Positions 6,793 to 21,316 of a stretch of DNA of 64,000 bases are shown piece after piece (position 1 is the stretch's first letter; each line of letters starts with the position of its first letter). A program made the translations under genes and the position numbers. Below the pieces are notes generated by a model. That model was not told where the DNA came from. It saw only the letters and a list, made by a program, of their open reading frames with translations, and ran no database searches. The DNA lies in the NCBI GenBank assembly GCA_047639315.1, contig JBLINQ010000003.1, forward strand, positions 10,452 through 74,451, read 5' to 3'. The stretch comes from Planctomycetota bacterium. GTDB lineage: Bacteria > Planctomycetota > GCA-002687715 > DRQF01.

Positions 6793-7413
6793 CTAACGCT
6801 CGGCACCGAAGATGATCCGCCACATATTCACTCCGTTGATCAAGAAGTGAATGAAAATCGGGACCAAGATATTCCCTGTCACCATGAAGCCATATCCAAG
6901 GACTAACCCGGAACCGACGGCGAAAATGGTCCATGGGATGTAGGATTTGTGGCGCCCCATGTGAAGCATGCCGAACAAGATGCTCGTTGCAACAAGTCCT
7001 ATGGTGGGCGACCCGCTAAGGCTGGCCAAGCTTGTTTGAATAGCGCCACGGAAGAAGATTTCTTCGGCCACAGAGCTGTACAACGACAAGAAAAAGACAC
7101 CGGTTCGAGTCAAATCGCCTAAGCGCGATCGAACCGCTCCTTCTAACATGTCGAACACATTGGTTTTCCAACGCACCAAGCTGACAAGGAGAACAAGAAC
7201 AATGCCGGTGGCAAAGGACCATGACAACTCGCGTCCGATGACAGCGAGTTCGGTCGTCCTCATCAGCTGAATATCGGATAGGTAGCACCAAGCAACACCA
7301 ACCATGAGCACGATGAAATAGACCAGCGAGATTCCAACAATGAGTGGTGGAATATTCTCGGGCAGATCACCGTCAGTTTCGGCTGCTGGTCCTTCGTACA
7401 TAAATTGCTCCAT
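6793..7413 (-). CDS. CPBP family intramembrane glutamic endopeptidase (CAAX protease/Abi family)
   Basis: All three family motifs are present: EEIFFRG (EExxxR), FGMLH (FxxxH) and HFLINGVN (HxxxN). The protein has multiple TM helices. The start is set at the first ATG (7413), since the tracked ORF begins at a TTG (7461). Confidence 0.8.
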   Translation of the reverse strand: MEQFMYEGPAAETDGDLPENIPPLIVGISLVYFIVLMVGVAWCYLSDIQLMRTTELAVIGRELSWSFATGIVLVLLVSLVRWKTNVFDMLEGAVRSRLGDLTRTGVFFLSLYSSVAEEIFFRGAIQTSLASLSGSPTIGLVATSILFGMLHMGRHKSYIPWTIFAVGSGLVLGYGFMVTGNILVPIFIHFLINGVNMWRIIFGAER

Positions 7414-7539
7414 TCCGAAACTATCGGAGGAATGGATGGCCCCACTCAAATTTCCTCTCAATCATGCCAGATTCCTCGCGGTAAAGGGAGGATCTATCAC
7501 AATCATGGACAGCCCTTCGCTTCACGGTAGAATGCCCCC

Positions 7540-12288: not shown

Positions 12289-12329
12289 GACGGCACCGAG
12301 CCCCTTCTCTCGGTGCCGTCACTTTTTTT
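12289..12329 (+). terminator. rho-independent terminator
   Basis: A perfect 12-bp stem GACGGCACCGAG / CTCGGTGCCGTC with an 8-nt loop is followed by ACTTTTTTT. Confidence 0.75.
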
Positions 12330-12411: not shown

Positions 12412-13593
12412 ATGGTCTTGGAGTCACGCGGTAGTTGGTTCGGGAGCAACGAGGTCATGATTCGAATTCTCAAGCGGATGCGAAACCATTCACGCCTAGG
12501 AAGTCTCAGGCGTAGAGCAGAGGTGGACCCGCTGCCACGATCCTATGTCGAGTTGTGCCGAGCACACTTGAGCCACGGTAATGTCTCCAGTGCATTAGAC
12601 GCCGCCCGGGTCGGCCTGGACAAGTTTCCACACAGTGAAGATCTGAGAGATTTGATGCGCCACTCTTGGCGCCAGACCAAATCGAAGGAGATCGACAATC
12701 TCCGCCGTGTGCTGCAAGAGACATCGGAGTCCAAACCCTTCGGCGAACTCATCGAGATCTATCTGGAATGCGAAGAATACGATGAAGCCCTCGTGGTCGC
12801 TGAAGAGTTGACCCGTCGGCGACCTGACGTTCCCGATGGTCAGGCTATGATGGCCGATATCTTGCTTCGCCGATTCTATAAAGATCATGTGGCAAGCGAC
12901 GCGAAACGCTCGATCGCGCTCTTGTTGAGAGTGCTCGAATCTGAAGAATCCAACTTTCAGGCCAACTTCTTGTTGGCTCAAATCTACCGCTACATTGGGG
13001 CGATCTCGAAGTCACTGTTCCACCTTTACCGAGCACTTGATGTCGAGCCAGAACACGAAGAAGCGCGTCGCCTCTATGACCACCTGATAAACCTTCCTCT
13101 TGAAAAAGATGGGGAAAACGAACTGCTGCGGCAGGTCGAAGAGAATGAAGCATCTCTCATCAGTGGTAACGGCGCTGCGAAGCGTAAAGACGGAACCATT
13201 TCGACAACCAGGAAGTCAGCCTTGATCCAGGATCTTGGTCGCTTCAGTCAATTGAATAGCGTGACACGCGCAGCCTTCTTGAGCGACGAATTCGTGATTA
13301 TCGCCAAGACCGGTGATTGCCGCGAACTTGGCAATGACGAAGAAGACGACCTTTGCGAGATGGCCAGGATATTCCGCTCGGCAGCAGCGATCAGCGCCAA
13401 GCGGATGGGCATCGGTGCTTTTCAAACATCGATCCTTTCGGCAGGGAAGAAGAGCCTTCAGTTCCATGCCGTCGGCCGGACCGTTTTATTAGTCGAATCA
13501 GATGATCCCACTCGAAGCGACGTGATCAAACAAGAATGCGTTGATTTTGTCGCCTCGTGCATGAGGATTTCCCGGGAGTTGACTCATGCGTGA
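12412..13593 (+). CDS. TPR-like N-terminal domain fused to a C-terminal Roadblock/LC7 (MglB-like) domain
   Basis: The helical repeat region includes EIYLECEEYDEALVVAEEL and AQIYRYIGAISKSLFHLYRAL. The C-terminus VTRAAFLSDEFVIIAKTGD ... LQFHAVGRTVLLVESDD fits the Roadblock pattern. The start is uncertain (ATG 12412 or 12457). Confidence 0.65.
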   Translation: MVLESRGSWFGSNEVMIRILKRMRNHSRLGSLRRRAEVDPLPRSYVELCRAHLSHGNVSSALDAARVGLDKFPHSEDLRDLMRHSWRQTKSKEIDNLRRVLQETSESKPFGELIEIYLECEEYDEALVVAEELTRRRPDVPDGQAMMADILLRRFYKDHVASDAKRSIALLLRVLESEESNFQANFLLAQIYRYIGAISKSLFHLYRALDVEPEHEEARRLYDHLINLPLEKDGENELLRQVEENEASLISGNGAAKRKDGTISTTRKSALIQDLGRFSQLNSVTRAAFLSDEFVIIAKTGDCRELGNDEEDDLCEMARIFRSAAAISAKRMGIGAFQTSILSAGKKSLQFHAVGRTVLLVESDDPTRSDVIKQECVDFVASCMRISRELTHA

Positions 13594-13939
13594 AGTACTT
13601 CAGAAACTCAATACGCTCGCAGGGATCAAGGGTAGCTTGGTCGTGACATCTGACGGCATTGTCGTCACCAGTGAACTCTCCAACGAACTCGACGAGGATA
13701 CGACGGCCGCACTTGTTGGCAACGTTGTGACTCAAACGATTCGCATGTTGGAAATTGGCAAATACGACGACATGGACCGCATGGTGCTAACTGCATCCCG
13801 GGGCAAGATCGTCATTGAGAACTTAGGCAACTGCCATCTCGTGGTTGTCACAAATCAATTCATCAACATTGATTTGACTTTACTTGAAATAACCAGCGCC
13901 GCTTCGAAGCTCAGAGGGCTTGGCAAATTGACAGTTTGA
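13586..13939 (+). CDS. Roadblock/LC7 domain protein (MglB/MglC-like)
   Basis: The 117-aa sequence LAGIKGSLVVTSDGIVVTSE ... MVLTASRGKIVIENLGNCHLVVVTN is a typical Roadblock domain. GGGAG lies 8 nt upstream, and there is an 8-nt overlap with the previous gene. Confidence 0.85.
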   Translation: MREVLQKLNTLAGIKGSLVVTSDGIVVTSELSNELDEDTTAALVGNVVTQTIRMLEIGKYDDMDRMVLTASRGKIVIENLGNCHLVVVTNQFINIDLTLLEITSAASKLRGLGKLTV

Positions 13940-13997: not shown

Positions 13998-15281
13998 ATG
14001 GTTCAACTAAATTTGGCTCTGCGCGAGATTAACTGCAAAGTTGTTTACTTTGGGTGTGGTCTTGGCGGAAAAACGACAAACCTCGAAATCGTGCACCAAA
14101 AGGCTGCTCCGGACAGTCGGGGTGATTTGACGTCCATTGCAACCGAATCCGATCGGACTCTGTTCTTTGACTTCATGCCTCTGGACTTAGGCGAAGTCAG
14201 CGGCATGCGGATCAAGTTTCAGTTGTATACTGTTCCTGGACAGGTTTACTACAACTCGACACGAAAACTCGTGCTCCGAGGAGCTGACGGCGTCATCTTT
14301 ATTGCCGACTCTCAAGCATCCAAACTCGAAGAGAATATTGAGTCGATCGACAATCTCGAAGAGTGCTTGAAGGAACAAGGTCGGTCACTTGACGAAATGC
14401 CGCATGTCATCCAGTTTAACAAACGCGATCTTGATGACGTTCTGACGATGGACGAGTTAGAGAGACAACTCAATCGTTATGGTGCCACATGTAATGGTGC
14501 GACGGCATCAACTGGCGAAGGAGTCTTAGAGACCTTCAAGGCACTGGCAGCTATGATGCTGGACAAGATCAAGGCGATGTCGACGGAAAGTAGCGCCAAG
14601 ATTGGCAATGCAACGTCGTCCATGGCCAGTGTTAAACCTAATCCTGCCCCGACGAAAGAGGAGAGGGATTCTCAAAGGCTGCAAGGCGGAATTGCCTCGA
14701 CTCCAGAGAAGCCGCAACGGCAAGTTCAGTTAGGCAACAAACCAACCACAACCACGACGGGCCAGGTTGCTCGCCCAGCGGGGTTTGAATCGAATACGTT
14801 TTCGACACCACCTCAGACCGCTCCTGCTGACAGGCCATTGCCGGCTATGCGGCCAGCGGCTCATGCATCGGTGCCTCCGGAACCAATGGTAAAGCCCAGT
14901 CCCGTAGAGGCGCCGTCTCTTGATTCATTGCGAATGACAAGCACCTCATCCGCGCCTGCGCAGCAGGCACAAGCCATGGCGCCGGAGCCCAGCCAGAATG
15001 CTGTCTCGACGATTACGGAAGTCGAAACAAAACCAGATCCTATGGAAGTGATTTCGGAGCCCAAGGTGAGACCCTCGGTACGAGAGTCCCGGCCTTCTCC
15101 GGCGCCTCGCCGTGTCCGACCAGGTTCCACACAAGGAGCCATCGAGGTCTTGGGCGCAGGGCTCATGATTTCCTCGTCCTCGCGTCGGCGCCGTAACGGC
15201 AATGGCAAGCTCTATTGGGTGCTGGGATTCCTGCTCCTTGGTGCTTCCGCTGCAACGGCTTGGCACTTCTTCCTTAGATAA
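13998..15281 (+). CDS. mglA: MglA-type Ras-like GTPase with ~230-aa low-complexity C-terminal extension and terminal TM helix
   Basis: The first ~195 aa closely resemble Myxococcus MglA as I recall it: the P-loop GCGLGGKTT, the Arg-finger region DRTLFFDFMPL, the MglA-specific G3 YTVPGQVYY and G4 NKRD. A P/S/T/A-rich region follows, ending in RRRRNGNGKLYWVLGFLLLGASAATAWHFF. Confidence 0.9.
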   Translation: MVQLNLALREINCKVVYFGCGLGGKTTNLEIVHQKAAPDSRGDLTSIATESDRTLFFDFMPLDLGEVSGMRIKFQLYTVPGQVYYNSTRKLVLRGADGVIFIADSQASKLEENIESIDNLEECLKEQGRSLDEMPHVIQFNKRDLDDVLTMDELERQLNRYGATCNGATASTGEGVLETFKALAAMMLDKIKAMSTESSAKIGNATSSMASVKPNPAPTKEERDSQRLQGGIASTPEKPQRQVQLGNKPTTTTTGQVARPAGFESNTFSTPPQTAPADRPLPAMRPAAHASVPPEPMVKPSPVEAPSLDSLRMTSTSSAPAQQAQAMAPEPSQNAVSTITEVETKPDPMEVISEPKVRPSVRESRPSPAPRRVRPGSTQGAIEVLGAGLMISSSSRRRRNGNGKLYWVLGFLLLGASAATAWHFFLR

Positions 15282-15309: not shown

Positions 15310-15816
15310 ATGGACGACAGCAAGAAACTCAAAGACAACCGCATGATCTTCTACGAAGATGATATTGCGGACATGGTCAAGATCCTCAAAGAATTAAACA
15401 GCATGTCTGGAGCGAAATGCTCCCTCCTGATCGACAAGGAAGGACATATGGTTGCGCGCGAAGGGGCTGTCCGCTCCTTCGACACCGACTCACTGTCAGC
15501 TCTTGTGGCTGGATCATTTGCAGCCACTCGCGAAATGGCGCGAATGGTCGGAGAAGATGAATTTACGGTGATGTTTCATCAAGGCCAGAGAGACAACCTT
15601 CAGCTGACTCTGATCGATGACCGGACAATTCTAACCGTCATTTTTGACGATCAGACCCAACTAGGAATGATCCGTCTCTATACCGCCGAAGCAGCCAAAA
15701 AACTCAGCGAATTGTTTATCAAGCAGAGCAAGAAGGGCGATCGTGCCGGTATCGAACTCGACAATGATTTCGCTACCGCAGGGAAGGCCAATCTCGACGA
15801 CGTATTTGGCGTCTGA
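15310..15816 (+). CDS. mglB: MglB (Roadblock/LC7 GTPase-activating protein of MglA)
   Basis: ATG at 15310. SLLIDKEGHMVAREG ... DSLSALVAGSFAATREMARMVGEDEFTVMFHQGQRDNLQLTLIDDRTILTVIFDDQTQLGMIRLY parallels Myxococcus MglB, including the acidic C-terminal tail ending in NLDDVFG. Confidence 0.85.
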   Translation: MDDSKKLKDNRMIFYEDDIADMVKILKELNSMSGAKCSLLIDKEGHMVAREGAVRSFDTDSLSALVAGSFAATREMARMVGEDEFTVMFHQGQRDNLQLTLIDDRTILTVIFDDQTQLGMIRLYTAEAAKKLSELFIKQSKKGDRAGIELDNDFATAGKANLDDVFGV

Positions 15817-15907
15817 TTCTACCCTTCCTGACCACACCATTTACGGCTATCTTCTAAAGAAGGGTCGCACTCTGTTTGTGCGACCAATTTTGGGAGGAGG
15901 CCTGGTT

Positions 15908-16372
15908 GTGGATCAGTCTGCGCGCATCATCGAAATCGTCGGGTCGGTTGGCAAGCTCGGTGTCCGTTTTCCGATTTTGCTCACTTTACTCCGTCTTCGG
16001 CGGGCAGATATTGAGTTTGACCAAGAATGCCGCCAACTCATCGGTCGGTCGATGGAGATTGATCCCTCCGAAATCCTCAAAGTCGCTGACTGGGTTAACT
16101 CGTTAGGCAAGCCAGGCGAGAATTCGGTCATTCATCGTTGTGTCAGCATCAGCTGCACCAGCAACGGCGCCCAGGAACTTTGGGACCTCATCGAACCGGA
16201 ATTCCAAGATCTCGAACTTATCCCCGCGGTCCAATCCGTCCTTTGTCTAGCCCGTTGTGGCATGGGACCATGCATGGCCCGTGACGAAAGTATCTATCTG
16301 GGCCAAAATGAGGATATCCACGTGGATGATCGGCCTTGGCGAGAAGCGCCGGTGGACCAAGGCCAGTCGTAA
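15908..16372 (+). CDS. hypothetical Cys-rich protein
   Basis: GTG at 15908 is preceded by the strong RBS GGGAGGAGG (15892-15900). The tracked ORF start at 15743 would overlap mglB. Cys motifs are RCVSISC and CLARCGMGPC. The family is not recognised and the start is uncertain. Confidence 0.45.
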   Translation: MDQSARIIEIVGSVGKLGVRFPILLTLLRLRRADIEFDQECRQLIGRSMEIDPSEILKVADWVNSLGKPGENSVIHRCVSISCTSNGAQELWDLIEPEFQDLELIPAVQSVLCLARCGMGPCMARDESIYLGQNEDIHVDDRPWREAPVDQGQS

Positions 16373-16411
16373 GTTCGGCACAGCGCGCTTCAAAAGGAGT
16401 GGATCGAGGGT

Positions 16412-16990
16412 ATGGACGAGTGGGATCTTCTTGAAGCGAAGGACGGTGCGGCGGAAGCGTACGAGGAAATCGTCCAACGCCATTATCAGTCGGCATTCCA
16501 ATTTGCCCGCCAAATACTCTCGGATGCCCAGCACGCCGAAGACGTCGTCCAAAAAGCATTCGTCAATATTTATGTCACGCGTGAGCGCTGCCAGCGTCGC
16601 GCCAAGTTTAAGACCTTTCTTTTCAGGGTCGTATCAAACTTGGCGATCAATGAGCTCAATCGCAAACGCCCGGTCGCTTCGGTCAGTGAAGTCATGCCTG
16701 ACAATCGGGAAGGAGGCGCGTTCTCCTTCTCTGACCCAGATTCGATCCGACCAGAAGCGGCTCTCGAGTCTGCAGAATTGGGGCAAATGATCGAGGCAGC
16801 ACTGCAACAACTACCCCCGCGCCATCGAGCAGCATTGTATTTGCGCGAATATCAGCAGATGCCTTATGCTGGGATTTCCGAGGTCTTAGACGCTTCCCTG
16901 AACGAAGTGAAGATCTGGATTCATCGTGGCCGAGGAGCCCTCCAGAAGATTCTGAAACCCTATTTAGATCGGGGCGAGAGCATTTCATGA
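16412..16990 (+). CDS. ECF (group 4) RNA polymerase sigma-70 factor
   Basis: Region 2 (AEDVVQKAFVNIY, FKTFLFRVVSNLAINE) and the region 4 HTH (MPYAGISEVLDASLNEVKIWIHRGRGAL) are present. GAGGG RBS. Confidence 0.9.
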   Translation: MDEWDLLEAKDGAAEAYEEIVQRHYQSAFQFARQILSDAQHAEDVVQKAFVNIYVTRERCQRRAKFKTFLFRVVSNLAINELNRKRPVASVSEVMPDNREGGAFSFSDPDSIRPEAALESAELGQMIEAALQQLPPRHRAALYLREYQQMPYAGISEVLDASLNEVKIWIHRGRGALQKILKPYLDRGESIS

Positions 16991-17979
16991 GCACCGACGA
17001 GAAAGACATTCAACTGGGCCTCTACTTGGATGGAGAGCTGCCGCCTGACGATCTTGCTGCCCTCGAAGGGGAGCTGGCGACTTCTCCTGACTTGAGAGAC
17101 CGACTGGAACGGCTCAAGCGTGCCAGCAAAGAACTGCAAAACTTCTACACCGATTCGCAAATGATTGACTCCCCAAACGAAACCGAGAAGGACATTGTCA
17201 TAGAACGAATCGTTCGGGAGAGCACCATGCAAGGCAGGCGGAGCGCGATAAACCGTAAAAACGGGCGGAGACCATCGTTTATTCTGATGACGACAGTCGG
17301 AATTACTGTCATTGCCGCCCTATTCTTGGGTTTCAGGACTTGGATGGGCGGCGAGCCAGAGGCGTCGAAGCTGATCGAAGGGGCTCGGAAAGAGCTCTCT
17401 TCAGGATATTTTGAAGCCGACGTCAAAATGCCGAGTCTTATGGCAGTCATCCAGGCTCTGAGCAGTGCCGCGAACCAGGATATTCTCAATGCAGCGTGTC
17501 GCTTGAGAAAAGGGCCCGACGGCATTTTCAATCTCCAGATCAAGGATAAAGATAAGGACGAGGAAGTCGCACAAATGGGATTTGACGGCGTGCAAGGTTA
17601 CTTATGGCGCAATGGCGACACCTCGGTCGAACTCCTGACTCTCGAAGAAATCAAAGCAAACCCTTACGTCAATGCAGCATTCTCAAGTTGGGAATTAGTT
17701 CGAGCCGCCCTCGAAGAAGGCATCGATCACCCTGATGCTCTGAACTTAGTTGGTAAGGTGAAAGACGCCGCTGCCGGCAGCGAGCAGCTTTGGAAGGTGC
17801 GCCTTTCTGGTCCGAGCACCAGTGGCCGCGCTAAATACTGGTTTGATGACGAAGGCCAATTGCGGCGGATCGAAGCCGCCGGGGTTCAGTTTGACGTCAA
17901 TCCGAAAGCCAAATTGACGAAGAAGGACTTTGAGATCAGCACAGTCCTTCCAGGGAAATCGATCAAGAGAGACCTATGA
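16987..17979 (+). CDS. membrane-spanning anti-sigma factor with periplasmic domain
   Basis: There is a 4-nt overlap with the sigma gene. The N-terminus LYLDGELPPDDLAALEGELATSPDLRDRLERL is typical of an anti-sigma N-terminal helix. It has one TM helix (FILMTTVGITVIAALFLGF) and a ~210-aa external domain. Confidence 0.7.
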   Translation: MSTDEKDIQLGLYLDGELPPDDLAALEGELATSPDLRDRLERLKRASKELQNFYTDSQMIDSPNETEKDIVIERIVRESTMQGRRSAINRKNGRRPSFILMTTVGITVIAALFLGFRTWMGGEPEASKLIEGARKELSSGYFEADVKMPSLMAVIQALSSAANQDILNAACRLRKGPDGIFNLQIKDKDKDEEVAQMGFDGVQGYLWRNGDTSVELLTLEEIKANPYVNAAFSSWELVRAALEEGIDHPDALNLVGKVKDAAAGSEQLWKVRLSGPSTSGRAKYWFDDEGQLRRIEAAGVQFDVNPKAKLTKKDFEISTVLPGKSIKRDL

Positions 17980-18343: not shown

Positions 18344-21316
18344 TCAATTCAACCTGAGCACTTGTTCTGCCTGAGACTCGGCAGTCAACAGGAGGCGTCC
18401 AGTACGACCGTCGCCGCCTTCAACTTCAAGTGTGTGGTTTCCTTGGCCCATCGTGAAGGTCAAATAGAGCGTATTCGTTCGATACTTCTTGCGCGTACCC
18501 TCGGCGATGACTACTCCCCCAGCATCCGACAATTTGTAGGAATAGGAAGTCATCGAACCATCTTTAAGATCTTTGGCGAAGCTGAATTTCATCGCCCGCC
18601 CCTGAGAGACAGGCAAGGTCACTTCGACAGTTTGCCCAGGCGTCAAAGTGACATCCTTGGTTCGCGTTACCAGTTCTTGGCCGCCCAACTTCAAGCGGTA
18701 ATGCCCAGGTGCCAGGGGCTGGGAGAGTGATGTTGGGCCAATGGCCTGGATGTTGATTGAAGATCCATCGTCTAAGCTTCGCGCATAAATAGTCGTCTTA
18801 TCCCCAGCGCCGAGGCCCGGTGTATTAATCTTAACGCGCCCGGGATCTATGAAGGCAAGGTCGCCGACGTCAAGTGTCTGCCCGTTCAGGACGACCTTTT
18901 CTTCAGATTTTTGGCTGCCATAGAGGGGTGCGCGCATGAGGAAACGATAACGGCCCGGCGAAATATCCTTGAACTCGAAACGGCCCTCGCCATCGGCGGT
19001 CTTGATGCCTGTGCCGCCGCCCGAGACAAAGGGCTGACGCATGGCTGAGATTGTTGCGCCGCTGACTGCGCGACCATCCTTGCCGACGATGCGACCGATG
19101 ATGGTTGCTACTCCGATGGCGTCATTTGGGATAACCACGCGAATGATATCTGGGCCTGATGCCACGCCAGGGATGCTGCGAAGAGTGATGCTGTTCTTAG
19201 GTGAGCTAACGGACAGTGTGTAGCCAGAAAGGCCGGCTTCTAATCCTGTAACCTTAAACCGGCCGTTCTTATCTGATTTATCAAAACCACCGATATAGCG
19301 CTCGGAGGTGAAGGCCATCACGGAGACGCTCATCCCTTCCACCGGATTGTCGCCCTCATCGAGAACAATTCCTTGGACCGAGCCTTCCGGTTTCTTCAGC
19401 TGTGTATTCCACACAGACGGTTCGGCTGCCGTCACGACAACCGATCCTTTGGCTTCGCCGCAGTCTTTCTTTTCCGCTGTGAGTGAAGCCTTGCCAAGAA
19501 CAACATTCTCAAATCGAAATTCACCCTTGGCGTTGGTGCGCATGAAGTGACTGGCTAAGTCGCCATAACGGCCCAGGTTGACCTGAACACGCTCCAAGGC
19601 CAGCCCATCAGCACCAGTGACCACACCAACCACGATGCCGCCTTTTTGGAGAATGACGCGGTGGCGTACGGTCTGCCCCTCTTTCACCTGAATCGTCTCT
19701 TTGTGAGCGGCAAAGCCGTAAGAGCGGATCACGAACTCAAGGTCCCCTGGGGCGAGGTTCTCAAGGGCGAGCCTGCCATTCTCGTCAGTCTTGTCGTCGG
19801 TTCGGCTGAATTTCATGCCCTTGTTGCCGTCAGGAAGACTGGATTGATAAAAGTCGAATTTGCCAGCAATGCAGCGCGCACCAGCGACGGGCTCGCCTTC
19901 AAAGTCGACGACTTCCAAAACCGCACGGGCCGCCGGGCCACCTAATATTAAATCGAGCTTCTTCTCGGCCCCAACGGACGGAAAAATCATGACCAACGCC
20001 GAGGGTAGGAAGCCCTTGGCCCGAGCTCCTAATACACCAATGGTGTCGTGCCCAAAGTTCGGCACCACAAAACGCCCATCAGCTCCAGTGACAGTGATCG
20101 GCTCCGTTTGGATTGGATGGCCGAAGTCGCCCGAGACAATCTCAGCCCCAACCACCGGCTTATCTTCTAAGGTCAAAACACGTCCAGTAATGCGCGAACC
20201 CATGGGGACCACCAAAGTGTGCTTGGTGGTCGTGCCTGCCGGTATCTTAAGGCGCGCCCTGCCGCCAACGCGGGTTGTGATGAGCGCGGTGCCAGCGGAA
20301 TAAGCGGGGAGAATCAGAACGCCAGTTTGATCGGTGCGAAAAGTCTCTTTCCGAAAAAACGGGTCGGTCACACTAAAAGGCAGAAAGGAAACAGGAATGT
20401 CGGCAGCTGGCTCGCCTCCCTCGCCGTAAGTCACGGTCAATTCTAAGCGCCCAACTTCCTCGCCGAATTGATTGCGGGGAATGTCGGTAACTTCCTCCTT
20501 AGCCTTAGTTTCTTCTGACGTGGCAACAGGCTTAGCCTTTTCCGCAACAGCCTTTTCATCTTCATCGACGTTCCGACGAGGCACCTTGGCTTCCGCGACT
20601 CCTTGTGATGCCTCCTGGTTAGAATCCAGGTCGAAATCGGCATTTTCGTTCGTGAACTGGTAGATCGTCACAGCCACGACAAGCACAAAACCCGCGGCGA
20701 TCGCCACTTTCACTTTTCCGGACATGACGGCAGCTCCTTTTATGAATTCTGAAATGACAGTCGATGTTGTAGTGGATTTTATGAAGACAGCAGTGGGGAC
20801 GAGAGCGAGGGCCCAGGTGTTGCGAGATCCATACTCAGAGTCGAGTTGTTGACGCAATTGCTCAAGTCCGCGCCGGGTTCGGGTGCGAACGGTCTCTTGC
20901 GGAACGCCCATCACCCGGGCAACGTCATCGTTCGCCAAACCCTCAAAAAAGACCAAGGTGATTGTTTGGCGGTAGGGCGGTTTCAGAGTCGAAACCGCTT
21001 TGACCAATCTCATTCGTACTTCACTGCGTTCGAGGATGTCTTCCGCGGATTCTGTTGCGCGCTGCGTGGCTGACCGCGATTCGATGTCCCGTCGTCGCGT
21101 TTCATCGCGCCGCTTTCTCATGCCGCGAAACCGCAAGGCATGGGATAACCACCCCAGCAAAGACGGGGTCTCAGAGGCTGCACCTTTGGTAGCAGACATC
21201 CAGGCATCTTGGCGCGCGTCATCGGCGTCATCTTGGGAACAGACTAAGTTCCTCGATAAACGCTCTAATTCGCCGTCGATCCGCAATAGTTCTTGGTGAT
21301 CAATGTCCTTGGGCAT
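18344..21316 (-). CDS. ECF sigma factor domain fused to a TM helix and a ~765-aa extracytoplasmic CarboxypepD_reg-like repeat region
   Basis: The N-terminus carries sigma region 2-like (DDADDARQDAWMSA, WLSHALRFRGMRKRRD) and region 4 (YRQTITLVFFEGLANDDVARVMGVPQETVRTRTRRGLEQL) sequences. A TM helix (VAIAAGFVLVVAVTIYQF) follows. After it come at least 5 repeats of the G-x-V-x-D-x-x-G-x-P-V-x-G-A type (GRVLTLEDKPVVGAEI, VVDFEGEPVAGARC, GIVLDEGDNPVEGMSV, GRIVGKDGRAVSGATI). Confidence 0.8.
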   Translation of the reverse strand: MPKDIDHQELLRIDGELERLSRNLVCSQDDADDARQDAWMSATKGAASETPSLLGWLSHALRFRGMRKRRDETRRRDIESRSATQRATESAEDILERSEVRMRLVKAVSTLKPPYRQTITLVFFEGLANDDVARVMGVPQETVRTRTRRGLEQLRQQLDSEYGSRNTWALALVPTAVFIKSTTTSTVISEFIKGAAVMSGKVKVAIAAGFVLVVAVTIYQFTNENADFDLDSNQEASQGVAEAKVPRRNVDEDEKAVAEKAKPVATSEETKAKEEVTDIPRNQFGEEVGRLELTVTYGEGGEPAADIPVSFLPFSVTDPFFRKETFRTDQTGVLILPAYSAGTALITTRVGGRARLKIPAGTTTKHTLVVPMGSRITGRVLTLEDKPVVGAEIVSGDFGHPIQTEPITVTGADGRFVVPNFGHDTIGVLGARAKGFLPSALVMIFPSVGAEKKLDLILGGPAARAVLEVVDFEGEPVAGARCIAGKFDFYQSSLPDGNKGMKFSRTDDKTDENGRLALENLAPGDLEFVIRSYGFAAHKETIQVKEGQTVRHRVILQKGGIVVGVVTGADGLALERVQVNLGRYGDLASHFMRTNAKGEFRFENVVLGKASLTAEKKDCGEAKGSVVVTAAEPSVWNTQLKKPEGSVQGIVLDEGDNPVEGMSVSVMAFTSERYIGGFDKSDKNGRFKVTGLEAGLSGYTLSVSSPKNSITLRSIPGVASGPDIIRVVIPNDAIGVATIIGRIVGKDGRAVSGATISAMRQPFVSGGGTGIKTADGEGRFEFKDISPGRYRFLMRAPLYGSQKSEEKVVLNGQTLDVGDLAFIDPGRVKINTPGLGAGDKTTIYARSLDDGSSINIQAIGPTSLSQPLAPGHYRLKLGGQELVTRTKDVTLTPGQTVEVTLPVSQGRAMKFSFAKDLKDGSMTSYSYKLSDAGGVVIAEGTRKKYRTNTLYLTFTMGQGNHTLEVEGGDGRTGRLLLTAESQAEQVLRLN

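Follow-up and report, generated by a model that had tools for sequence, protein, structure and literature searches.

A predicted tail-anchored form of the small GTPase MglA in Planctomycetota

MglA is the textbook bacterial small GTPase, and the model of front-rear polarity depends on a soluble protein that exchanges between the poles. In Myxococcus xanthus soluble MglA is brought to the poles by the polar partners that it binds. MglC and further accessory factors work together with MglB in M. xanthus, and TPR proteins are effectors of MglA-GTP in both M. xanthus and Bdellovibrio. An mglA gene was analyzed in a 64,000-nucleotide (nt) stretch of DNA from a Planctomycetota bacterium (contig JBLINQ010000003.1, positions 10,452 to 74,451), referred to here as the window. 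The product is predicted to have an MglA G domain linked through a long disordered spacer to a tail anchor in the membrane, and probably acts as a membrane switch regulated by MglB.

The MglA proteins of model organisms are 195 to 197 amino acids (aa) long and the M. xanthus paralogue SofG has 239 aa (PMC4316618). A survey of prokaryotic small GTPases dropped 39 of 488 MglA-clade sequences that were longer than 240 aa, so the extended form of MglA was not classified. Planctomycetes are unmentioned in the main text of that survey (Wuichet & Sogaard-Andersen 2014, PMC4316618). No description of an MglA anchored by a transmembrane (TM) segment, a tail anchor or an amphipathic helix was found in the literature searched, most subscription journals being outside its coverage, and the architecture is apparently undescribed. 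The MglA G domain and its pairing with MglB are known. The tail-anchored form appears to be new, as does the wider group of MglA proteins with C-terminal extensions to which it belongs.

G domain, spacer and C-terminal helix of the window protein

The mglA gene is a single open reading frame (ORF) with GAGGA located 8–12 nt 5' of the ATG. The first-pass annotation had assigned residues 1–195 to an MglA G domain with the motifs TVPGQ, RTLFFDF and NKRD, and a PDB search bore this out. Residues 4–192 aligned without gaps to residues 4–192 of M. xanthus MglA (PDB 5ymx, 6h17, 6hjh) with E = 1.7e-64, and the identity of the G domain was 52%. The match to Thermus thermophilus MglA (PDB 3t12) had E = 1.6e-57. 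The nearest non-MglA structures were Rab and Sec4 with E of about 1e-6 or weaker (2e-6 next best). Residues G19, G24, K25, T26, R53, T54, T78-V-P-G-Q82 and N141-K-R-D144 are identical in the window protein and M. xanthus MglA, and the segment R53-T-L-F-F-D-F59 is the same at the same positions.

The P-loop G19-C-G-L-G-G-K25-T26 has the GxxxxGK[ST] form of group-1 MglA. The intrinsic Arg finger R53 stands beside the switch-I residue T54 in ESDRTLFFDF, and both were invariant in a homologue alignment (alignment A1). The G3 motif is TVPGQ in place of DxxGQ and the G4 motif is of the NKxD form, as in group 1 (PMC4316618). Pfam matches at E ≤ 0.01 were to Arf, Ras and Gtr1_RagA only. Public annotation names the window protein "signal recognition particle receptor subunit beta" (SR-beta), "ADP-ribosylation factor-like protein" or "MglA", and NCBI and JGI use the SR-beta name for many relatives as well. 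The SR-beta name is misleading and unsupported in view of these Pfam matches, the best structures being MglA, and a TM helix that is C-terminal rather than N-terminal as in SR-beta. On every sequence criterion the G domain is assigned to group-1 MglA, and it appears to be catalytically complete. The whole protein lies outside the operational size definition, having 427 aa compared to the 150–240 aa of a single-domain protein in the survey (PMC4316618).

The reading frame was reported in the first-pass annotation to continue beyond the G domain for about 230 residues of low complexity. This proved correct. One frame is open to codon 427, the sequence entropy falls from 3.8–4.0 bits in the G domain to 3.2–3.7 bits in the extension, and residues 196–400 are rich in P (15%), S (13%), A (11%) and T (9%), followed by R (8%) and E (7%), with a net charge of +7. 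Only 0.04% of mononucleotide shuffles of nt 14583–15278 were stop-free in this frame. In the AlphaFold2 model (mean predicted local distance difference test score, pLDDT, 63) the G domain was folded and its final helix (176–207) ran past residue 195. No secondary structure was modeled for residues 208–402.

The extension was divided into a variable spacer and a conserved juxtamembrane module. In alignment A1 the subclade of the window shares the motifs AMSTESxAKP, D-x-x-R-L-Q-G-G, RPAGFES, V-R-P-S-V-R and G-x-G-M-M-I-S-S-S-S, the last placed before the basic cluster. D-x-x-R-L-Q-G-G lies about 30 residues past the G domain in this subclade, and P359 and R362 were invariant. RLQGG was found in 22 of 164 TM-type proteins and a hhhS[ST] motif in 38 of 164. 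RLQGG and MMISSS were considered as universal processing or recognition sites and rejected, being confined to the window subclade. The features common to all TM-type proteins appear to be the long low-complexity spacer, the basic cluster and the terminal helix.

The window gene was compared to its closest homologue (P0002/L081), which comes from an independent ENA assembly. In the G domain the proportion of nonsynonymous differences (pN) was 0.021. It was 0.32 for the linker and 0.097 over the final 42 codons, where the proteins are 81% identical. The proportion of synonymous differences (pS) was approximately 0.77. Synonymous sites were saturated even against this homologue, which precluded an estimate of dN/dS, and pN and pS are given instead. 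pN was below pS in the linker and in the last 42 codons, indicating that the extension is under purifying selection. The spacer is fast-evolving yet constrained, and the juxtamembrane and helix part is well conserved.

The protein ends in ...GAGLMISSSS-RRRRNGNGK-LYWVLGFLLLGASAATAWHFFL-R, in which LYWVLGFLLLGASAATAWHFFL is an uncharged stretch of 22 residues (405–426, nt 15210–15275). A basic cluster followed by a hydrophobic helix had been proposed for this end, and both were located (residues 396–404 and 405–426), in agreement with the coordinates proposed, and found conserved in 117 of 120 related proteins and 69 of 71 genes. The Kyte-Doolittle mean of the 19-mer at 408–426 was 1.71, making it the only hydrophobic window above 1.6 in the protein, and the five top 19-mer windows all lay at residues 403–427. 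A Kyte-Doolittle scan of the 427 aa showed neither an N-terminal signal peptide nor a second hydrophobic segment, and the N-terminus aligns with soluble MglA. AlphaFold2 placed a helix at 403–426 with a pLDDT of 73–84. The helix is not amphipathic, its mean Eisenberg hydrophobicity being 0.71 and its hydrophobic moment 0.11. With this moment and no charge in 22 positions it differs from the amphipathic helices of the MinD/FtsA type. The protein has the features of a tail anchor: one bilayer-length segment near the C-terminus with one residue beyond it, no other TM segment, and flank charges that fit.

These features recurred in 164 TM-type homologues. The uncharged stretch had a median of 26 aa and a minimum of 20, and the helices of homologues were more hydrophobic than that of the window protein, with Kyte-Doolittle means of up to 3.5. 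The net charge was +3.4 in the 15 aa preceding the helix and +0.5 past it. The positive-inside rule for a cytoplasmic N-terminus was obeyed by 94%, which predicts a cytoplasmic G domain. The tail beyond the helix had a median of 0 aa, and 150 of the 164 carried an aromatic residue in the last eight positions, at the outer end of the helix. A GxxxG-type dimerization motif was rejected. The pattern [GAS]xxx[GAS]xxx[GAS] was observed 80 times compared to 82 ± 6 in shuffled helices, and this lack of enrichment gives no sign of a specific helix-helix interface. The window protein ends in ...AWHFFLR and has no C-terminal cysteine of the CaaX or CC type.

Conservation in Planctomycetota and the wider family of long MglA proteins

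The exact window protein is on record in NCBI (MFT7616561.1, from a Planctomycetota metagenome-assembled genome, MAG), JGI and Logan, that is in three sources and on two contigs. Its 120 best database relatives were all long (244–439 aa), and 117 of them had a hydrophobic helix no more than 25 residues from the C-terminus. Gene neighborhoods were compared in the best 80 of 388 relatives from a scan of one genome per species. The submitter labels of these 80 loci were nearly all Planctomycetota and included Planctomycetia, Planctomycetaceae, Phycisphaerales and Brocadiaceae. The gene was complete in 71 loci and a terminal TM helix was detected in 69 of these. The two exceptions were L001, which was marginally under the threshold, and L068, which was frameshift-like.

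In the 80-locus set the linker between G domain and helix had a median length of 132 aa (range 65–340), and no locus had a separate gene between mglA and mglB. The comparison with orthologues that had been called for showed the extension to be kept in relatives and excluded, at the loci compared, an arrangement of two separate genes. A rough neighbor-joining tree of G domains grouped 42 of the 53 TM-type proteins in one clade of 48 and left M. xanthus MglA outside it, suggesting that the TM anchor arose once in Planctomycetota. The TM-anchored architecture appears to be the standard form of MglA in this phylum and no peculiarity of the window genome. No short soluble MglA was found in the 64-kb window.

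Two loci stood apart. The L068 gene (6001–7335) had no terminal helix and ended in an Arg/Pro/Ala-rich tail (RPRRLRLRPRARLRPARAP...), which is typical of an out-of-frame read of high-GC DNA and is probably an assembly frameshift. L074 (JBERSB010000378.1) was labeled as Luminiphilus sp., a Gammaproteobacteria MAG, and carried the full Planctomycetota-type cassette with a TM-type MglA 61% identical to the G domain of the window protein. This contig is most likely mis-binned.

The G domain alone was used in an exhaustive phmmer search of 1.84 billion 50%-identity representatives, and 2147 proteins were found at E ≤ 1e-30. The 150 best matches were 207–668 aa long and scored 224–328 bits with 51–77% identity. 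As a yardstick, the PDB search with the full-length window protein gave M. xanthus MglA a score of about 221 bits. The statement that canonical MglA ends near residue 195 thus held for the model organisms but failed for the family, all 150 of these representatives being long. Much of the family was hidden by the size filter used in defining the small GTPases of prokaryotes.

Among 148 new representatives 47 were TM-type and approximately 40 ended in a basic-hydrophobic motif (KKKGFFDGLFKK, KKKKGFFKRLFGLK, KRFSLFGWLRRLFS; KKNFLDNLF is another example). Proteins of the second type were about 350–700 aa long with P/Q/A-rich linkers of up to about 470 aa. The remaining long types had acidic F-x-D-x-x-P-F motifs, AFLTPEEL...PTRRMPLGPGQ or a beta-rich element at the end. 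With a basic-hydrophobic protein as seed, 109 further long proteins were found, and 76 of them carried the motif. The few named proteins of this type (four source names) were from Fibrobacterota, namely Fibrobacter, Chitinivibrionales and Chitinispirillaceae. The type lay outside the TM clade in the rough neighbor-joining tree. The KKKGFFDGLFKK-like tail resembles the membrane-targeting sequence of MinD. The simple hydrophobic moment of the Fibrobacterota tails was modest (0.22–0.30), so "MinD-like" denotes a sequence resemblance and a lead, not a demonstrated amphipathic helix. The MglA family has several types of C-terminal extension, TM-MglA among them.

Gene cassette around mglA

The window mglA lies in a cassette with three genes for Roadblock-domain proteins (Table 1). 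The order TPR-Roadblock, Roadblock, MglA, MglB on the plus strand was kept in essentially all 80 loci. TPR-Roadblock homologues were directly upstream in 79 of the 80, the small Roadblock gene was kept in most, and mglB was directly downstream in related loci reaching that far. In the window the end of the TPR-Roadblock gene overlaps the start of the small Roadblock gene by 8 nt, and mglB lies 28 nt 3' of mglA.

Table 1. Features of the window around mglA, with positions counted from the first letter of the window.
Feature	Position	Strand	Details
CPBP/Rce1-like gene	6796..7461	-	"Type II CAAX prenyl endopeptidase" family
Terminator-like hairpin	12289..12320	+	12-bp stem, 9 G-C pairs, then T run
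TPR-Roadblock protein	12412..13593	+	393 aa; first cassette gene; Pfam TPR_14/TPR_19; N-terminal TPR, C-terminal Roadblock-like
Roadblock-like domain of TPR protein	13222..13557	+	Residues ~271–382; hhalign vs Robl117 family
Small Roadblock/LC7 protein (Robl117)	13586..13939	+	117 aa; Pfam Robl_LC7, E = 2.7e-9
Tail-anchored (predicted) MglA gene	13998..15281	+	Single ATG-started ORF, 427 codons + stop
G domain	13998..14582	+	Residues 1–195; P-loop G19–T26, Arg finger R53 with T54, TVPGQ 78–82, NKRD 141–144
Variable spacer (predicted disordered)	14583..15062	+	Residues 196–355; P/S/A/T-rich; subclade motifs AMSTESxAKP, RLQGG, RPAGFES
Conserved juxtamembrane module	15063..15209	+	Residues 356–404; VRPSVR...PRRVRPG...GAGLMISSSS, then RRRRNGNGK
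Basic cluster RRRRNGNGK	15183..15209	+	Residues 396–404; inside juxtamembrane module
C-terminal hydrophobic helix	15210..15278	+	Residues 405–427; LYWVLGFLLLGASAATAWHFFL then R; predicted tail-anchor TM segment
MglB	15310..15816	+	168 aa; Roadblock fold; PDB 6h5b_B/6izw_B (M. xanthus MglB), E = 2.4e-28, residues 11–166
Downstream co-directional genes	15743..17979	+	Ferredoxin-like ORF, ECF sigma factor, putative anti-sigma factor; Pfam
Thioredoxin-like [2Fe-2S] ferredoxin-like ORF	15743..16372	+	Start uncertain; Pfam
ECF sigma factor	16412..16990	+	Pfam
Putative anti-sigma factor	16987..17979	+	330 aa; 4-nt overlap with sigma gene; hydrophobic segment near residue 100
Sigma-factor fusion protein	18347..21316	-	990 aa; ECF-sigma-like N-terminus (Sigma70_r4_2, Sigma70_ECF), then ~800 residues of CarboxypepD_reg, PEGA and Ig-like repeats

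The mglB product appears to be a full-length MglB orthologue. Its structural match takes in the C-terminal helix region. The Pfam Robl_LC7 match had E = 3.5e-15, and the NCBIfam MglB score was 98 bits, under the equivalog cutoff of 200. The PDB matches of Robl117 to Roadblock, dynein light chain and LAMTOR2 structures were weak, those to Roadblock/LC7 proteins being better than that to LAMTOR2 (E of about 0.7). No match was found between the C-terminus of the TPR protein and Robl117 by pairwise BLASTP. An hhalign comparison of 52 homologues of the TPR protein to the Robl117 family gave a probability of 96.8% with E = 2.2e-10 over 108 aligned columns.

The hairpin preceding the TPR-Roadblock gene is likely the upstream boundary of the transcription unit, and no further terminator-like site was found on the plus strand before 18467. 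A promoter scan gave 5 sites compared to 4.2 ± 2.0 in shuffles, and in view of this lack of excess no promoter is claimed. The ferredoxin-like ORF and the genes for the extracytoplasmic function (ECF) sigma factor and putative anti-sigma factor are probably co-transcribed with the cassette, and no terminator separates them from mglB. Their synteny with the cassette was limited to the closest relatives (L002–L007), and they are outside the phylum-wide core.

A gene for a DUF4388 (PATAN)-TPR-PQQ-like beta-propeller protein of about 1070 aa directly precedes the TPR-Roadblock gene in 69 of the 80 loci (e.g., L009, 1128–4343, plus strand). It was not beside the cassette in the window subclade (L001–L007) and was not found anywhere in the 64-kb window. 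This protein may be a further component of the system. The CPBP/Rce1-like gene lies approximately 6.5 kb upstream of mglA. Its presence nearby is probably a coincidence, as the family is widespread in bacteria and the window MglA has no CaaX motif. The 990-aa protein encoded on the minus strand beyond the cassette is an unusual sigma-factor fusion.

Proposed mode of action and comparison with known systems

A tail-anchored MglA acting at the membrane as a switch regulated by MglB is proposed as the general mode of action, with a probability of about 0.78. One polypeptide would carry the MglA GTPase, a disordered spacer of about 200 residues and the C-terminal tail anchor. The basic cluster would stay in the cytoplasm, one helix would cross the cytoplasmic membrane and a few residues at most would reach the periplasm. 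Tail anchor and spacer would thereby tether the G domain flexibly on the cytoplasmic side of the membrane, with a reach estimated from chain statistics at approximately 8–10 nm root-mean-square and a maximal contour length of about 75 nm. The co-encoded MglB would act as GTPase-activating protein (GAP), setting the nucleotide state and turning the GTPase off. Roadblock domains work as dimers. The TPR-Roadblock and small Roadblock proteins may form a dimeric regulator serving as co-GAP, guanine nucleotide exchange factor (GEF) or adaptor. The switch would recruit and release effectors at the membrane and the GTPase would relocate by lateral diffusion only. Soluble M. xanthus MglA differs in that it travels to and from the cell poles through the cytosol. 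The single conserved frame, the catalytic motifs, the linker, the terminal helix with its flanking charges and the conserved operon were shown computationally, whereas insertion into the membrane, the topology, the GAP function of MglB and the roles of the two extra Roadblock proteins are inferred.

Some observations weigh against this proposal. The AlphaFold2 input alignment was shallow (22 sequences), so the low pLDDT of the linker (approximately 37–57) is weak evidence of disorder. The window helix is only moderately hydrophobic, being rich in Gly, Ala, Ser and Thr with one His, and a simple Hessa-scale sum gave +1.6 kcal/mol. This is the chief weakness for the window protein itself. Such a helix, rich in small residues, would also suit a protein-protein or oligomerization element, or one lying in the plane of the membrane like the targeting helix of MinD or FtsA. 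The Fibrobacterota relatives, which end in a short basic-hydrophobic motif with no TM helix, indicate that peripheral attachment occurs in the family. A helix that does not span the membrane is, however, difficult to match with the uncharged run of 20 residues or more that each of the 164 TM-type proteins has, the low hydrophobic moment, the strong charge asymmetry, the aromatic belt at the far end and small-xxx-small packing motifs at shuffle level. It was judged improbable. A similarly low probability was given to regulated release, in which a tail-anchored precursor is cut in the linker or juxtamembrane module to free a soluble MglA and anchoring is a storage or timing device. The far better conservation of the juxtamembrane module (V-R-P-S-V-R ... 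G-x-G-M-M-I-S-S-S-S-RRRR) than of the spacer suggests that something recognizes it. The conserved D-x-x-R-L-Q-G-G of the window subclade also speaks for release, as would the nearby gene for a CPBP/Rce1-like intramembrane protease, were it not probably coincidental. Against release, the candidate motifs are not universal while the anchor and long spacer are, and the conserved cassette holds no protease gene. An always-cleaved precursor would also need no spacer kept at 65–340 aa in every lineage.

An artefact was considered in which a normal mglA of about 195 aa had been joined to a downstream gene for a small membrane protein, through chimeric assembly, a missed stop or a frameshift. The exact window protein is in NCBI from a MAG only, and frameshifted copies do exist, L068 with its Arg-rich tail being one. 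The comparison refuted this explanation. The identical protein was present in three sources and on two contigs, the same plan was found in 69 of 71 genomes and 117 of 120 proteins with differing linkers, the extension is under purifying selection, and no separate gene lies between mglA and mglB. The frameshift or missed stop for which the first-pass annotation had proposed a check is excluded on these grounds, and the probability left to an artefact is negligible. An equally minimal probability was given to a sorting signal for an exported protein displayed outside the cytoplasm, of the PEP-CTERM/exosortase, LPXTG/sortase or GlyGly-CTERM/rhombosortase type. A hydrophobic helix with a terminal basic residue (FFLR) is superficially like such signals. 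The basic cluster nevertheless precedes the helix, whereas in sorting signals it is past the helix, and no PEP, LPXTG or GG signature abuts the helix. There is also no signal peptide or second hydrophobic segment, and a GTPase depends on GTP and, in this case, on MglB, both of them cytoplasmic.

A broader proposal is tentative and of fairly low probability. Planctomycetota, and Fibrobacterota with a different anchor, may have independently evolved a eukaryote-like use of a Ras-superfamily switch at the membrane, and the cassette of TM-MglA, three Roadblock proteins and TPR repeats may be a membrane GTPase platform that organizes membrane-linked polarity. Bud-site choice, invagination of the membrane and the positioning of envelope machines would be examples. 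The GTPase would diffuse laterally under local GAP and GEF activity, with no cytosolic exchange from pole to pole. The cell biology of Planctomycetota is unusual and includes budding and division without the canonical division genes. An integral-membrane MglA throughout the phylum would imply a spatial logic other than that of the soluble protein, in which the GTPase diffuses in two dimensions and effectors are recruited to the membrane. It would also be a bacterial parallel to the design of G domain, hypervariable linker and membrane anchor seen in Ras, Rab and Miro.

The closest described systems are the MglA-MglB pairs of M. xanthus and T. thermophilus. These share with the window protein the P-loop, Arg finger, TVPGQ and NKRD motifs, and the window MglA likewise has MglB encoded alongside. 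The M. xanthus and T. thermophilus MglA proteins are soluble and of 195–197 aa, whereas the window protein has about 230 additional residues with a predicted terminal TM helix. The window cassette also goes beyond MglA and MglB with two more Roadblock-domain proteins, in one of which the domain is joined to TPR repeats. SofG is, like the window protein, an MglA-family GTPase above the canonical size. Its extension positions it in the cell via bactofilins, and SofG is not known to have a transmembrane segment. The extension of SofG is short compared to the 200-residue spacer and predicted tail anchor of the window protein.

Among eukaryotic small GTPases Ras and Rab are anchored by a hypervariable linker with a lipid anchor, Miro is tail-anchored and SR-beta has an N-terminal TM helix. 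The window protein shares their design, in which a spacer that is flexible and poorly conserved links the G domain to a hydrophobic anchor at one end. Unlike Ras and Rab, its predicted anchor is a peptide helix with no lipidation motif, and its G domain belongs to the MglA clade and not to Arf, Rab or Miro. Rag GTPases sit on the Ragulator scaffold of Roadblock-domain LAMTOR heterodimers. Both systems would have a membrane-held small GTPase with several Roadblock-domain proteins. In Rag-Ragulator a lipidated scaffold subunit carries the anchor, whereas in the window system the GTPase itself is predicted to do so. The likeness of Robl117 to LAMTOR is at fold level only. Bacterial tail-anchored proteins and those of the MinD/FtsA type join a cytoplasmic nucleotide-dependent switch to the membrane by the C-terminus, as TM-MglA is predicted to do. 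The TM-type MglA proteins fit the definition of a tail anchor, and the window helix, unlike the MinD/FtsA type, is not amphipathic.

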